Shown in pieces: positions 6,744 through 14,232 of a stretch of DNA of 18,367 nucleotides. The position numbers and the translations under genes are program-made. Each line of letters opens with the position of its first letter. Position 1 is the first letter of the stretch. The notes below the pieces were generated by a model that was given only the letters and a program-made list of their open reading frames with translations, made no database searches and had not been told where the DNA came from. Origin of the DNA: a virus; the UHGV virus genome UHGV-0120185, one strand, 5' to 3'.

Positions 6744-7789
6744 TGAGCAGAAAAAATAAAAAAGTGCGCATGAGTTCACGCATTGATCTCGCTGATGCGC
6801 TCAGGAAAGAATCATCGCTCAGTGCATTCACATTTGATGGTCCTTATCGCCTGACCGGGCATGACCTGCTGGACAATATGTACTGTGCTGATAACGGGCG
6901 GTGGTATGAAACACCGGTGGACTGGTACGGTCTGGCAAGAGCTGCCCGGCAAACGTCCTGGCATCAGTCTGCGCTTTACTTTAAGCGCAATGTATTACTC
7001 GGTTGCTACATCCCGCACCCGCTGCTTTCCCGGCAGGATTTCTCGGCGCTGGCGCTGGACTGGTTTGTGTTCGGTAACGCATTCCTTGAGCTTCGAAGCA
7101 ATATGCTCGGCGAACCGCTTAAATTACGGCACGCCCTGGCGAAATACATGCGACGCGGAAGCGATCTTGAATCATGGTGGTATGTGCAGGATGGTAAGGA
7201 TGCGTTTCAGTTTCGCCCAGGCAAAGTGTGCCACCTGATGAATCCTGACATTAACCAGGAAATCTACGGCATGCCGGAATATCTTGGCGCATTACTCTCG
7301 GCCAGCCTGTCTCATTCGGCGGACATGTTCAGAAAACTGTATTACGACAACGGATCCCATGCCGGGTGCATCATCTACATCGGTGCAGCGCAGGTAAACC
7401 GCGAAAGCATGGACTCCCTGAAAGAAACGTTACAGGGTGCGCGTGGTGGCGGTGCGTTTAAAAACGTGCTCATTCATGCGCCCAACGGGGGCAAAGAGGG
7501 GGTGCAAATTTTGCCGTTCCAGCAGATCACCGCAAAGGATGAGTTCATGAATGTTAAGGCGGCATCCCGTGATGATGTGCTGGCTGCGCACCGCGTTCCG
7601 CCGCAACTGATGGGGGCGATGCCGGGCGAAAAAAGTGCGTTTGGTGATGTGGAGAAGGCCGCGCGGGTTTACGCAATTAACGAACTGATGCCCGTCATGG
7701 AGGCCATGAAGCACATCAATGACTGGCTTGGCGAAAAGGTGATCCGCTTTAACCCTTACGCACTGTTAGACACCCAGCCCACATCCTGA
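6743..7789 (+). CDS. Q: P2 gpQ-like portal protein
   Basis: 348 aa immediately after P with overlapping TGATG junction. Size and position match P2 Q, reading toward cos. Confidence 0.85.
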   Translation: MSRKNKKVRMSSRIDLADALRKESSLSAFTFDGPYRLTGHDLLDNMYCADNGRWYETPVDWYGLARAARQTSWHQSALYFKRNVLLGCYIPHPLLSRQDFSALALDWFVFGNAFLELRSNMLGEPLKLRHALAKYMRRGSDLESWWYVQDGKDAFQFRPGKVCHLMNPDINQEIYGMPEYLGALLSASLSHSADMFRKLYYDNGSHAGCIIYIGAAQVNRESMDSLKETLQGARGGGAFKNVLIHAPNGGKEGVQILPFQQITAKDEFMNVKAASRDDVLAAHRVPPQLMGAMPGEKSAFGDVEKAARVYAINELMPVMEAMKHINDWLGEKVIRFNPYALLDTQPTS

Positions 7790-8280: not shown

Positions 8281-8619
8281 CTATAGCTTTGATGCAGGCT
8301 GGGCTAGGTCTCCTTTGATGCCAGTGTTTACAACCTGACAAGCCTCTTTGAGTACCCAGTCAACAGCGTCTTTCCATGCTCCGGTTTCGGCTGGCGGATT
8401 CTCACGCTTTACCAGTTCATAGAATCGTACTGCTCTAACCAGTCCATCTGACGGTTTTGCCTGTAGTGCAGCCTGAGCTATGCGGTATGCCTGGAGCATA
8501 CGGGCGTCGTTGATATCCATTCCGAACGGAATTTCTGATGATTGTGATTCTGCATCTTCAAGCCTGGCAATTTCTTTACGTAAAAAGTATTTCAACTCTT
8601 GTTTTTGTTTTCTGTTCAT
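8281..8619 (-). CDS. hypothetical protein (112 aa), partner of the ClpX-zinc-ribbon-like protein
   Basis: ATG overlaps the upstream gene's stop (ATGA), followed by the terminator. No family recognised. Confidence 0.55.
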
Positions 8620-8948
8620 GCGTTTTTTCCCTTTTTGTCTGTCACTTCTCTCCTGATAATTTCATTGCACAAATCCACGCACTCATTGCAGATGCAAACA
8701 GACGGTCCGGCAATCACCTTTGTGACTTCGTACTGAGATTTATTGCAGAAGCTGCAATAAATCGTCTCCTCGCCTGAAGTCCATGTTTTGCTGGTTTCGC
8801 CAGACATCAGTTGTTTGAGGTCTTTTTCACGACGAAGAACTATCTGGCCACATTCAGCTATTTTTTGGATGTTGACATTTTCTTCTTTCGCCAGCGCTTC
8901 CATCCGCTCAATCAGTCGCTGCGCTTTTTCTCTGTCAATGTGTTGCAT
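8616..8948 (-). CDS. small protein with C-terminal ClpX N-terminal-type C4 zinc-ribbon domain
   Basis: C-terminal '[39 protein letters not shown]' versus ClpX N-domain '[39 protein letters not shown]' as recalled (about 30/40 identical, all four Zn-ligand Cys kept). N-terminal ~60 aa unrelated and helical. RBS AAGGGGG before ATG at 8948. Confidence 0.75.
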
Positions 8949-9327: not shown

Positions 9328-10287
9328 TTACTCCTTGTCCATTGCGTACAGCCCATTAACCAGAGCAAACTGTGGCACCCCGTCCGCGATGAAAGTCGCA
9401 TTAACTCCGCAGGCTTCGCGGATAGCGGGTGCCACAATCTCCGCCCCGCCACCGACAACCATCACCCGCCCGTAACCCGAAAAACCCGCCAGCGCGCGGA
9501 TCACTCGTTGTTTCAGTGTTTCTTCCTTTTCACGAATAACCGCCATCAGGCTGTCGTAATGCGCGTCATTGTGGATGTGCTGGCGCAGCCAGGCTTCATC
9601 ATGGCGATGTTCGATAATGGTATTGGCGATGTGGTGACTGGTGCGCATACCGTTAGTGGCCATCACCGACAGTACGGCATCGGCCATCAGAGAAACGCCT
9701 ACGTGTGGATCGCAAAACACCTGGCTGATACCTGCCAGTTGCCCCTGAACCTTTGCCACATCCAGCGTGGTTCCGCCCAAATCCACAATCAGCAGGGATT
9801 CAAACGGACTCATGTCAGCCAGTGCCTTAAAGCCAGCCGGAATGGATTCAGGCATAACCCGCACGTTACGGATAGTGAATGCTTCGCCGTTCTGGTACTC
9901 CACCGGGCGCATAACGTTCGCTTTTTTGCGGTTGATGTTGGCCATGTCCGGCTGTGCGTTTGTGTCGAAATACTCGCTCAGTGGCAGGGTGACAACCACA
10001 TCCACCTCCTGTGGCGTGATGCCTGATTTGACCAGCGCGTGATGAATGGCAATTACATTCACATCGCTGTACTGGTATTGCGTGTCGGTCGTCTGGACAA
10101 ATCGATCGCTGACCGGATCAAAACCATAGCGCACGCCATCAAGCATGTAGTTTGCGGGCTGCATGCCACCGAACGGCGCAGACCATTCCGATTTGAAGCT
10201 GTTCGGGCTGATGGCGTTGCGGCGTTCGCCGTTCTCAGTCCATGCCAGCTTGATGTTGGTGGAGCCGTCGTCGATACAAATTTTCAT
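9328..10287 (-). CDS. parM: ParM-like actin-type partition ATPase
   Basis: 'MKICIDDGSTNIKLAW', 'YQYSDVNVIAIHHAL', 'RKKANV', 'VMPESIPAGF', 'LLIVDLGGTTLDV', 'VMVVGGGAE', 'ALVNGLY' are collinear with plasmid R1 ParM/StbA as recalled. RBS AAGGA before ATG. Confidence 0.9.
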   Translation of the reverse strand: MKICIDDGSTNIKLAWTENGERRNAISPNSFKSEWSAPFGGMQPANYMLDGVRYGFDPVSDRFVQTTDTQYQYSDVNVIAIHHALVKSGITPQEVDVVVTLPLSEYFDTNAQPDMANINRKKANVMRPVEYQNGEAFTIRNVRVMPESIPAGFKALADMSPFESLLIVDLGGTTLDVAKVQGQLAGISQVFCDPHVGVSLMADAVLSVMATNGMRTSHHIANTIIEHRHDEAWLRQHIHNDAHYDSLMAVIREKEETLKQRVIRALAGFSGYGRVMVVGGGAEIVAPAIREACGVNATFIADGVPQFALVNGLYAMDKE

Positions 10288-10316
10288 GTCGATTTTCCTT
10301 ATGTTGATTAATTAAT

Positions 10317-10429
10317 CGTTTACGGGGTTTTTAAATCCCGTTTTTGCCTGTTTTATGCGCGCTTCATATATCGCGGCGCGTTTTTTGCTCATTTACGGGT
10401 TTTGTGAATCCCGTTTCTGTCTGTTTTTT
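10317..10429. repeat. two ~38-bp direct repeats 73 bp apart, candidate parC-like centromere/operator
   Basis: Copy 1 at 10317-10354 (cgtttacggggtttttaaatcccgtttttgcctgtttt), copy 2 at 10390-10429 (catttacgggttttgtgaatcccgtttctgtctgtttttt), ~85% identical. Each holds an ACGGG...CCCGT hairpin. Copy 1 is in the A-parM gap, copy 2 inside the last codons of A. Confidence 0.5.
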
Positions 10430-13186
10430 GTTTCCACTGGTCAGGCTACCCCGCAGCAGGTCTGCTTTGCGGCGGGCGCGTTCAGTGGTTTCACTGATTC
10501 TCTGTGCGTGCTCTGCGTCACGGATGGCGCGCAGCATGTCAGAAAGCACGGTAACGGGGGTTTTCATGGTGTTCTGGTCCTGCTGAAGTGTGGATGCCAG
10601 GCGTGCGGCGGCTTCGGGGTCTGATGCCCCCAGCTGTTCCAGATAGCCGGCGACCGGGTTATGGCGGATCTCCGTGCTGCTTACGCCGTGATTACGGCTC
10701 AGGCGCTGCCAGAGCTGCGTGATTCGGCTGTCCGGGCGGGTATCCGGTTTGCGTACAATTTCAAATCCCTGCGGTGCAATGATGCTGCCGTCAACGTACA
10801 GGCTGCCGCCCCGTAACAGGTGCTGCATCTGCTGTTCACCGATATGCAGGCCGAGAGATTCGGCAGACTCCCGCCATTCTTTAGCGAGTAATTCGTGGTT
10901 ATCAGGCAAAGGCCGCTGCTGTTTGCGGCTCTGTGTCCAGCTCTGCATTTCATCACTGCTGTTTTTTGCCTGTTTATCATGAAGCGAACGCATCAGCGCC
11001 CGGCGTTCGTGCCGTTTCAGTGAGCGCATCCATTCGTTCACTTCAACGCCATCAGGGAGCTGCGGCCACGGTGCTGGCCGTTCTTCCGGCTGTTCTGCCC
11101 CGTTGTTGTTCGTTTCCTGTACACGGGGACAGTTATTGCCACGAGTCCAAGGGGCGGCAGGGCCGCCCTGAAGGTCAAAACCATTTTCGCGGGCGCTGTC
11201 TTCCGCTTCCGGTTTACGTCTTACCAGCTTCCAGTTATCCGGATGCGTGCACACACGGGAGGATTCCCCGATGAGTGGTGACCAGATCCCGTAAATCTGT
11301 ACGCTCTGTTCGCCGTAATCGTTCAGCTCATCTGCGAGGTCGTAGGCGGTGCGAATCAGGTAGTCCTTGCGCGGAACAAGTACGCCACCCTGTTTTTCAA
11401 TGTAGGTGGCAAAACACCCGGCATCAGCGGCAGCAAGAACCGCATCCATTGCGTCATCCTTCAGCCGTTGCGGGCCTTCCGGGCTGCGTGCCATCTGGCT
11501 GGCAAGGCGGCGGAGTTCACGCCACACCTGACGGGAGGGAATGCCAAAGAACTGGAACTGGCGGACCCGGTGAAGGCGCGCCCAGCCGATGGCGCGTTCC
11601 ACGCTCTCGGCCATTGATTTTCCGGTTTCGTGGTCAACGCGTGGTTTGCCTGTTTTCGGGTCGATGCCATCCACGGCCCGGCTGTCCAGGTTTTTTCCGA
11701 TGTAGGTCGCGATATAGCTGGTTGGTGTGCCTTTTGAGCCGTCGACATACTCCGCCTTAAAGCGCGGAGTAATATCATTGCCCAGCTCGTGGCGGTCTTC
11801 CTGAATGGCAATATCGCGGGTGATGGCCACGATGCTGTCGATTTCTTCCGGATGAGCAAAGACCATCATATGCCAGTGCACGGTGCCGTCATGGTGAGGC
11901 TCCACCGTGCGGATGCCATACCAGCGAAGACCGTCGCGGTTCAGTTTTTTGCGGACCGCCGCAAAAAACGTGTTAACCAGGTAATCGCTGGAGTCGCGCA
12001 TGGTGGCCCCGTTCCATCTGGGATTCGGATGACCGTTCTCCGTTGTGGCGTGGTATTTTGACGGGCAGGTGACAGTCAGAAACACCGCTTTGTCGCCACG
12101 GGCTTCAGCCAGAAGTTCCAGCCCCTTCATGGTGGCCATCATTTCTGCCTTACGGTGAACCGGGTTACTTACTCCCGCGTAATACACCGTCTCGAGATCA
12201 ATCGTGAACCCGTCTTCATTTTCCAGCATGAAACTTTTCAGGAAATCGCGTGTTTTCTCGCGCTGTGCGCGAAACTCGCTTAACGCGTCCTGGCTCAGAT
12301 AGGGCGATGTTTTTCTGGAAACCAGACAGGCGGCGCGGAGTTGTTCTTCTCTCCACTCGCAACGTAACAGCCACAGTTTGCGTTTCCACCATTCCGCACA
12401 GGTCAGGCGAAGGATTGCGCCCGGCAGCAGTTCTGTGTCCGGTTCGTGCCTCCGGTCTTTGTCTGTTGTCAGTGCGTCATAATGCGGAGGCATGGCGTGT
12501 AAGTGTAACGCCATGCGGGCCAGCATCTGATACGCCTTCAGCGTTACATCCATGGTCAGCTCGCCATCAGTCGCGCCAAAACCATCGCAGAGTTTTTCGA
12601 AGGTGCTGCTGAACATCGCCGCCGTCATGGTGGCCAGCGTCTGTATCTGGTGTTTGTTGAGTTGCGGCAGGTAAAGCAAATCGTCCAGGCGTTCACGTCC
12701 GGCAAGGGAGCGATAACCCGATGTCAGCCAGCGGTGATCGGTGCGCTCCAGACGTTCGAATATTTTGCGCAGGGTCCCACGCGCATAGCGTTCTGCCTGC
12801 CTGGCGTTTTTTCCTTTCTGACGATCGGCTTCCTGTTTTTTGCGCAGGAAGGAGAGGTGGCGAATAAGCGGATCGCGCAGATAGGACGGCAGCAGGCGCA
12901 GTGAGGCCATGGCCTCATCTACCGCGCCGCGTGCCTGTTTTCTGGCGTCTCCTGCCAGTGTGATTGTTTTGTCCTGTTTTTCCTGTGCGTCCAGGCTTTT
13001 ATTAATCAGGTTGCCCAGCGGCGTGGCGGAGAACGCCGCATCAGCCATTTCCTGGCGGCGCTCGTTCTCTGCCCGGTAGGCATCCAGCCAGGAGGAAAGC
13101 GCGGATTCAGGAGCGGGGATCCCCGTTCCTTCACGCCCCACTGCGTGGCGCGGTTGTTGCCAGTCCCTGATGTACTCTGCCGTCAT
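10364..13186 (-). CDS. A: P2 gpA-like rolling-circle replication initiator (HUH endonuclease)
   Basis: HUH motif 'VHWHMMVF' and twin-tyrosine motif 'SYIATYIGK'. 940 aa, position between early genes and the accessory locus as in P2. Confidence 0.85.
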   Translation of the reverse strand: MTAEYIRDWQQPRHAVGREGTGIPAPESALSSWLDAYRAENERRQEMADAAFSATPLGNLINKSLDAQEKQDKTITLAGDARKQARGAVDEAMASLRLLPSYLRDPLIRHLSFLRKKQEADRQKGKNARQAERYARGTLRKIFERLERTDHRWLTSGYRSLAGRERLDDLLYLPQLNKHQIQTLATMTAAMFSSTFEKLCDGFGATDGELTMDVTLKAYQMLARMALHLHAMPPHYDALTTDKDRRHEPDTELLPGAILRLTCAEWWKRKLWLLRCEWREEQLRAACLVSRKTSPYLSQDALSEFRAQREKTRDFLKSFMLENEDGFTIDLETVYYAGVSNPVHRKAEMMATMKGLELLAEARGDKAVFLTVTCPSKYHATTENGHPNPRWNGATMRDSSDYLVNTFFAAVRKKLNRDGLRWYGIRTVEPHHDGTVHWHMMVFAHPEEIDSIVAITRDIAIQEDRHELGNDITPRFKAEYVDGSKGTPTSYIATYIGKNLDSRAVDGIDPKTGKPRVDHETGKSMAESVERAIGWARLHRVRQFQFFGIPSRQVWRELRRLASQMARSPEGPQRLKDDAMDAVLAAADAGCFATYIEKQGGVLVPRKDYLIRTAYDLADELNDYGEQSVQIYGIWSPLIGESSRVCTHPDNWKLVRRKPEAEDSARENGFDLQGGPAAPWTRGNNCPRVQETNNNGAEQPEERPAPWPQLPDGVEVNEWMRSLKRHERRALMRSLHDKQAKNSSDEMQSWTQSRKQQRPLPDNHELLAKEWRESAESLGLHIGEQQMQHLLRGGSLYVDGSIIAPQGFEIVRKPDTRPDSRITQLWQRLSRNHGVSSTEIRHNPVAGYLEQLGASDPEAAARLASTLQQDQNTMKTPVTVLSDMLRAIRDAEHAQRISETTERARRKADLLRGSLTSGNKKQTETGFTKPVNEQKTRRDI

Positions 13187-13699: not shown

Positions 13700-14146
13700 T
13701 CATGCTCTGATTTCCCTCAGTAGCTGGTTGAACATCTGGGTTAGTGGGTTGCTACACCCAAACGGCATCGGGTTTACCTGATAAGAAAAGCGACCGCCTG
13801 TTTTGCGCTCTTTTCTTATGACTGAACCGCTGCGCCAGAGACGGCGTAGCTCCGCATTAATGGTTGTGGTTGGTGTATTCAGTGCTGCGGCGATTTCTCC
13901 ACCGCTACAACCCGGATTGGCAGCGATGTAGTCCAGAATGGTCATCTGCGTGACTCCTGTACCTGTCTGATAAGATTTACCTGCACCACGTTGGTGGCGC
14001 AAAAAGTAAGTGCCGTCAGTGAGATAGATGTGATATGCATCCTTTTCTGAACGGTGTTTGTCGATTGTGGTAATCAGGCGTTCGTCAACTTCGTATTCAC
14101 GTCCTTTGGAGGTGAAACGAACGACGGGAAAATGCTTAATTGCCAT
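13700..14146 (-). CDS. hypothetical early-operon protein with putative winged-helix DNA-binding region (148 aa)
   Basis: Start at internal Met (14146) with strong RBS AAGGAGG 5 nt upstream. 'MTILDYIAANPGCSGGEIAAALN...INAELRRLW' is HTH-like. Confidence 0.5.
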   Translation of the reverse strand: MAIKHFPVVRFTSKGREYEVDERLITTIDKHRSEKDAYHIYLTDGTYFLRHQRGAGKSYQTGTGVTQMTILDYIAANPGCSGGEIAAALNTPTTTINAELRRLWRSGSVIRKERKTGGRFSYQVNPMPFGCSNPLTQMFNQLLREIRA

Positions 14147-14232
14147 TACGCCTCCTTGGCGTGTGCGAATACCTCCGCGAATGCGGATTGTTTTCACATT
14201 TTCTTATTTAACCTGGGGTCTTATTTGCGCGG

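Follow-up and report, generated by a model that had tools for sequence, protein, structure and literature searches.

The 115-bp stretch at positions 10316-10430 of the window, by which we mean the whole 18,367-bp piece of viral DNA analysed, is probably the ParR-binding centromere/operator (parC) of a prophage type II ParMRC cassette. This putative parC consists of two 42-nt repeats around a 31-bp core (42 + 31 + 42 bp). Like known type II parC sites, it lies directly upstream of parM and parR, is accompanied by a ribbon-helix-helix ParR whose C-terminal tail is of the ParM-binding type, and is co-inherited with its module and conserved in diverged relatives. Its repeats have the split two-block layout, but with two strong 20-bp palindromes in place of 8-10 direct 10-11-bp iterons, and a consensus scan revealed no ParR-repressed par promoter. 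The first-pass annotation had likened the layout to a parC centromere/promoter. The centromere part of this comparison is borne out by the module shared with parMR, the conserved position and spacing, and the R1-like split, whereas the promoter part is not, since the sigma-70 scans were negative. The partition genes of P88 have already been noted (PMC7969092), and no description of their cis site was found in the literature searched.

Genomic setting and the partition genes

The prophage in the window is P88-like (Xuanwuvirus, Peduoviridae, P2-family). Its repeat region shares 96-98% identity with phages P88, 520873, P884B11 and others, and a 181-bp slice shows a 100% match to the chromosome of the E. 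coli strain R1 from cattle. The element is present in about a quarter of the complete E. coli genomes (1270/5426), and 1404 of its 1406 places are chromosomal. P88 is an integrating phage, because its genome encodes an integrase, a C repressor and Cox. A complete P88-like genome has also been deposited as the 'plasmid' of an E. coli isolate (NZ_CP148288.1, 34,461 bp, circular), with integrase, Cox, gpA, parM, parR and structural genes. This circular record fits an episomal or induced state, as an anecdotal case only.

The genes gpA, parM and parR follow one another in that order on the minus strand (Table 1). The gene next after parR encodes a small ClpX-type C4 zinc-finger protein, for which the P88 annotation 'carboxylate--amine ligase' looks a misnomer. 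A family profile of eight ParRs including that of the window matched the pB171 ParR structure 2JD3 (E 4.8e-16), while a PDB search with the single ParR sequence alone gave no match. An alignment of ParR sequences revealed a conserved N-terminal strand (RRISFYLKP) and a conserved C-terminal N-x-x-x-LFP tail. Judged by profile and alignment, the prophage ParR is a true member of the ParR family.

Table 1. Coordinates of the repeat region and of neighbouring features in the window
Feature	Positions	Strand	Remarks
gpA, replication endonuclease, 940 aa	10364..13186	-	Pfam Phage_GPA, E 2e-130; stop codon TGA at 10366-10364, within the core
Distal 42-nt block	10389..10430	-	A-rich 17-mer + 20-bp box, in the last ~22 codons of gpA
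Distal 20-bp palindromic box	10395..10414	-	ACGGGATTCACAAAACCCGT; start -127 from parM ATG
Core, 31 bp	10358..10388	-	GC/AT-mixed, most polymorphic part of the element
Proximal 42-nt block	10316..10357	-	Intergenic; 29-70 nt upstream of parM ATG (10287)
Proximal 20-bp palindromic box	10322..10341	-	ACGGGATTTAAAAACCCCGT; start -54 from parM ATG
parM leader	10288..10315	-	Motif ATTAATCAA (10304-10312) and Shine-Dalgarno AAGGA (10296-10300)
parM, actin-like segregation ATPase	9328..10287	-	StbA_N + ParM domains, E 1e-82
parR, 103 aa	9012..9323	-	Pfam Plasmid_stab_B (PF10784), E 1e-23; presumed box binder
ClpX-type C4 zinc-finger protein	8616..8948	-	Just past parR
MarR/winged-helix protein	13700..14197	-	Upstream of gpA

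Anatomy of the repeats

A repeat search identified two 42-nt copies with 35 of 42 identical positions (83%), starting 73 bp apart and separated by 31 bp. The first-pass annotation had described tandem direct repeats of ~38 bp and ~85% identity. Two direct repeats at a distance of 73 bp are indeed real, but the unit is slightly longer and less well matched, and the copies are interspersed rather than arranged head-to-tail. No other pair in the window has at least 35/42 matches at a distance of up to 150 bp. In 200 dinucleotide shuffles, the best pair always stayed below 30/42, so that chance is excluded. The 20-bp palindrome pattern, which was derived from the relatives of this locus, occurs twice in the window against 0.06 expected. 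No such boxes were found in the rest of the window or in the rest of the P88 genome.

Read on the coding strand, each copy starts with an A-rich 17-mer, (T/A)AAA(A/T)(C/G)AG(G/A)CA(A/G)AAACG, which is followed by the 20-bp palindrome and by AAA(T/C)GA; a third copy of the 17-mer lies after the distal box. The palindrome has the form ACGGGATT-N4-AA(A/C)CCCGT in the window copies and ACGGGATT-N4-AATCCCGT in the clade consensus. Both copies carry the ACGGG..CCCGT element and the T-rich tail that had been noticed earlier, with the tail on the plus strand only, antisense to gpA and parM. It was also correctly seen that one copy is intergenic and the other lies in the end of gpA. The distal copy spans gpA codons about -8 to -22, and the gpA stop falls between the two. 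The AAAC sub-repeats within the blocks have a loose periodicity, and their spacing of 7-14 bp led us to drop a strict 10-11-bp sub-iteron reading.

Close relatives and the module boundary

The P88-like clade set comprised 84 loci with ParM 93-100% identical, among which the 170 nt upstream of parM occurred in 60 distinct versions. ParM scans of genome contigs and IMG/VR returned matches of 97-100% identity only, and more diverged relatives were collected through a protein search and contig look-ups. In this clade, both boxes most often take the form of a perfect 8+4+8 palindrome, with the consensus ACGGGATT-CACA-AATCCCGT for the distal and ACGGGATT-TCAG-AATCCCGT for the proximal box. The window represents a minority variant with one mismatch per box at the equivalent arm position (10327 C, AAT>AAC, and 10400 A, AAT>AAA; 3/64 distinct sequences each). 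The GGG/CCC cores are invariant within the clade, whereas the 4-nt spacers vary; other frequent polymorphisms affect GGGA(T/C) and the base preceding the box. Across 64-66 distinct P88-like sequences, polymorphism in the repeats was not below that of the flanking coding DNA, and the core and the proximal block were if anything more variable than the flanks. Therefore, the population data do not show constraint, the clade being too shallow.

The boundary of the conserved unit is marked by two loci with other upstream genes. In L051, a different gpA of 773 aa and then a 159-aa ORF precede the same repeats, and in L059 a 783-aa gpA is followed by a 155-aa ORF. In each of them, homology to the window sets in precisely where the distal repeat has its outer edge (...AAAAACAGACAGAAACGGG, ~10429), and it extends over the core, the proximal repeat and both partition genes. 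The genes downstream of parR also vary between relatives. Because both the upstream DNA and the neighbours downstream of parR differ, the conserved unit is repeat-core-repeat-parM-parR, and by this comparison the repeats are inherited with parMR as one module. Three unrelated upstream ORFs enter the distal repeat and share an end of ~20 residues, ...KKQTETGFT(K/N)PVNEQKTRRDI. The module boundary would thus force unrelated upstream genes to take their last ~20 codons from the centromere.

Conservation in diverged lineages

All ParM relatives found at 54-63% identity by the protein search are encoded in P2-like prophages, adjoin portal and terminase genes and keep the gpA-(orf)-parM-parR order. 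Two of them, from Hafnia (L089, ParM 62%) and Plesiomonas (L091, ParM 63%), retain two GGGA..CCC boxes at distances from parM similar to those in the window. The Hafnia boxes ATGGGATTGAGGAAACCCAA and TCGGGTTCATTAAATCCCAG start at -130 and -57 (73 bp apart), and the Plesiomonas boxes GCGGGACAACAAAAACCCGA and GCGGGACAACACTAACCCAC at -133 and -61 (72 bp apart), compared with 73 bp in the window and its P88-like relatives, whose ParM served as the reference. In a four-way alignment, the core and flanks have diverged, and the invariant columns are GGGA and AA-CCC (twice) together with an ATTAAT-AA motif before the Shine-Dalgarno sequence. The leader motif ATTAATCAA is kept in the P88-like, Hafnia and Plesiomonas loci, while the rest of the leader differs; it may be a -10-like element, act as a signal for translation or supply stop codons in two frames.

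Several other properties of the repeats are lost in these lineages. The plus-strand T-tails are absent in both Hafnia and Plesiomonas, and the Plesiomonas stems have only 3-4 bp. In the Hafnia locus, the upstream ORF reads the distal box in a different frame and has its stop inside the proximal box. Because T-tails, stems and reading frame are not kept, the constraint appears to act on double-stranded DNA half-sites and their spacing, rather than on a peptide, on terminator function or on hairpin stability.

The relatives from Serratia and Enterobacter (ParM 54-59%) have one long inverted repeat instead, CGGGAAC-GATATAGAAAAAT ... ATTTTTCTGTTTC-GTTCCC, so the two-box design is not universal. 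These loci still use a GGGAAC half-site with the flank GCAAAAACGGGA. In L092 and L094 (Serratia) and in L095 and L101 (Enterobacter-like), the inverted repeat is located ~130-60 nt upstream of parM, one example being GAAATAGAAAAATG-N26-CATTTTTCTATTTC with GGGAAC/GTTCCC on the flanks. The Serratia loci have hicAB directly after parR.

Promoter and terminator scans

A consensus scan of positions 10288-10460 detected no sigma-70-type promoter at a threshold of at least 9/12 matches or at a relaxed threshold of at least 8/12, although such a scan could miss a weak or activated promoter. The same thresholds gave no sigma-70-like site in L097. As a control, the relaxed 8/12 scan does find a promoter in the core of an R1-type locus. 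No sense-strand terminator was found between gpA and parM. With neither a recognisable promoter nor a sense-strand terminator, parMR probably shares the early-operon transcript of gpA, as far as negative consensus scans indicate.

Alternative explanations for the repeats

A conserved palindrome looks alike as a protein site or as an RNA hairpin, and the repeats might act as structured elements of the gpA-parM mRNA, with two hairpins that tune its processing or stability, or that uncouple or tune parM translation. Each repeat can form a coding-strand hairpin (-6.6 and -6.7 kcal/mol; z -2.8 and -1.65), and some clade variants (A>G, C>T) keep G-U pairs on the coding strand only. We nevertheless consider this unlikely. 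In the window, the mRNA stems are weak, comprising just 5 bp that close 10-nt loops. The Plesiomonas stems are limited to 3-4 bp, with CGGG opposite CCCA in one box, and the natural variants ACAGG, CCCAT and CCCGC break pairs. An Rfam scan gave no meaningful match (14.7 bits against a gathering score of 100), and mRNA hairpins would leave the conserved 72-73 bp spacing and the A-rich flanks unexplained. No clean double compensatory change was found within the clade; covariation is not discriminating here, because symmetric changes are expected of a palindromic protein site as much as of an RNA hairpin. It is highly improbable that the repeats are a duplicated coding segment with the peptide K-Q-x-x-T-G-F-x-x-P-V-N as the functional unit. 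This peptide is encoded by both copies, in the gpA C-terminus and in a 26-aa ORF (10392-10312, minus strand; MSKKRAAIYEARIKQAKTGFKNPVND) whose frame relative to the proximal copy equals that of gpA relative to the distal one. In L051, a 31-aa ORF (2832-2924) with a strong Shine-Dalgarno sequence (GAGGGGG) ends with the same peptide as gpA, and three different upstream ORFs read the distal copy in one common frame. However, the peptides are similar because the DNA of the copies is similar, which follows automatically, and the 26-aa ORF is without a Shine-Dalgarno sequence. The frame across the distal box differs in Hafnia (TAT GGG ATT vs ACG GGA TTC), where the ORF stops inside the proximal box, and clade variants in the box are often non-synonymous (F>L, N>K, V>A, V>I, T>M). 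The A6 run in the core (10381-10386, minus strand) is A5 in one IMG/VR relative, which could reflect a sequencing error or natural length variation. With this A5 variant, gpA would enter the 26-aa ORF frame and read through both repeats. Joining of gpA to the 26-aa ORF by +1 frameshifting or slippage on A6 is very unlikely, as there is no stimulatory context.

Two further readings had been raised in the first-pass annotation, and both were excluded as candidates. A role as part of the replication origin, extended here to accessory gpA binding sites, is suggested by the location of the P2 ori within gene A, by the distal copy lying in the 3' end of gpA, and by phased A-tracts, which are origin-like. 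The P2 nick site, however, is annotated 427 bp before the A stop, and its sequence GCGGCATCGCCGCGCCTCGGAGTCCTGTCAATAACTGT aligns to positions 11120-11173 of the window, in a homologous peptide block ~750 bp from the repeats. In four loci (L051, L059, L089 and L095), ORFs intervene between gpA and parM and the boxes still adjoin parM. L051 combines a different gpA with the same repeats, and P2, which lacks parMR, has no such boxes. An origin function of the repeats therefore seems very doubtful. The aligned segment at 11120-11173 (minus strand) covers gpA codons ~672-689, where the window has GCGGCCCTGCCGCCCCTTGGACTCGTGGCAATAACTGT against GCGGCATCGCCGCGCCTCGGAGTCCTGTCAATAACTGT in P2, and is probably the replication origin of this prophage. 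P2 (L098) contains a 14-nt direct repeat, GGAAAAAATTCACG at 2753-2766 and GGCAAAAATTCACG at 2822-2835, 69 bp apart, which straddles the A stop and the orf91 start in a genome without parMR and is probably due to chance. The suggestion of tandem intrinsic terminators has hardly any probability left. On the plus strand, the proximal copy does score as a terminator, with an 8-bp stem followed by TTTTTGCCTGT (-9.8 kcal/mol), and the distal copy has a similar T-rich tail. This strand, however, is antisense to gpA, parM and parR, and the nearest plus-strand operon (terminase, portal) ends at 7789. The coding-strand hairpins are followed by AAACGA/AAATGA and have no U-tracts. Terminator-like matches in the region numbered 3 against 2.0 in shuffles, which is no excess, and in Hafnia and Plesiomonas the T-tails are gone while the boxes are kept.

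Comparison with known partition systems

Split and continuous types of parC have been reviewed previously (PMC5016525). The parC of plasmid R1 is a 159-bp site with two sets of five iterons around a 39-bp core, in which one ParR dimer binds per iteron to form a U-shaped complex (PMC2241845). In the R1-type plasmid locus that we analysed, two blocks of AAACCC-type 11-bp iterons lie 94 bp apart around a promoter-bearing core, directly upstream of the parM Shine-Dalgarno sequence. The putative phage parC resembles it in its place directly upstream of parM-parR, in its two repeat blocks around a short core, and in its A-rich composition with AAACCC-like motifs. In both systems, the block spacing is close to whole helical turns (73 bp, ~7.0 turns, in the phage; 94 bp, ~9.0 turns, in R1), and the ParR proteins are homologous (PF10784, ~28% identity). 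The phage ParM, in contrast, is only about 47-52% identical to plasmid ParMs. Each phage block has one 20-bp palindrome with inverted half-sites and a conserved A-rich flank instead of five direct 11-bp iterons. The phage core has 31 bp and no detected promoter instead of 39 bp with an autoregulated promoter, and the distal phage block forms part of the terminal coding sequence of the gene preceding it. In an IncL/M plasmid locus encoding a ParM with 52% identity to that of the phage, iteron copies are spaced 10 and 73 bp.

The pSK41 parC that Schumacher et al. described in 2007, summarised in PMC5016525, consists of continuous direct 20-bp repeats bound by ribbon-helix-helix ParR dimers, one per 10-bp half. 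The phage site shares the 20-bp repeat unit with it, but its two units are palindromic and 73 bp apart, whereas those of pSK41 are contiguous direct repeats.

Partition loci are also found on other elements that normally reside in chromosomes. Like the prophage cassette, srpC of the SXT/R391 ICEs belongs to a type II partition locus on a normally chromosome-integrated element, and its proposed target is the circular form that replicates after excision (PMC4489591). It comprises four short repeats, direct and inverted, just upstream of a parM-like gene (PMC4489591). Unlike the phage boxes, the srpC repeats are 13 bp long and located in the 5' UTR, and SrpR has no detectable homology to ParR (PMC4489591). 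For srpC, binding and stabilisation have been demonstrated experimentally (PMC4489591). The AlpAC/alpS system of the Corynebacterium prophage CGP3 is likewise encoded by a prophage and pairs an actin-like filament with an adaptor whose target repeats precede its own operon (PMC5539076). The CGP3 AlpACS system has been proposed to move replicating viral DNA after induction (PMC5539076). Its actin-like family and adaptor are unrelated to those of the phage, and alpS is a short TTAAnnG repeat present in many copies (PMC5539076).

Proposed mechanism and implications

The design of the phage site is best explained as a two-palindrome split variant of parC, the distal half of which appears to have become part of the 3' end of the replication gene. 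This would be a compact form of parC, in which seven helical turns separate the two palindromes and a coding region contains one of them. We infer a mechanism comprising ParR binding, core looping, ParM filament-end capture and co-transcription of parMR with gpA. Ribbon-helix-helix ParR dimers would bind the GGGA(T/C)..(A/T)CCC half-sites, with probable cooperative spreading along the A-tract flanks. Once loaded, the two blocks, on the same helix face, would bend the core into a loop like that of R1, and the C-terminal tails of ParR (..N-x-x-x-LFP) would capture the ends of ParM filaments, which would push circular copies of the phage genome apart. Such a complex would be active on excised or replicating phage DNA, not on the integrated prophage. 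Bound ParR could also damp read-through into parMR.

ParMRC is a textbook plasmid-segregation machine, found here in an integrating P2-like prophage of about a quarter of the complete E. coli genomes. As a tentative suggestion, which we consider less likely than not, P88-like prophages (1270/5426 complete E. coli genomes) may carry a minimal promoterless two-box centromere fused to the 3' end of a replication-initiator gene. Production of ParMRC would in that case be tied to that of gpA and confined to the time after derepression. Rather than maintaining a plasmid, ParMRC would separate or position phage genomes that replicate by the rolling-circle mode, or it would sustain a facultative episomal state. 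Narrowing the cis site to two 20-bp boxes provides a small and precise target, with which the question why an integrated phage needs a centromere becomes testable. If this suggestion is true, a very common integrating coliphage would routinely use actin-like DNA segregation in its life cycle.
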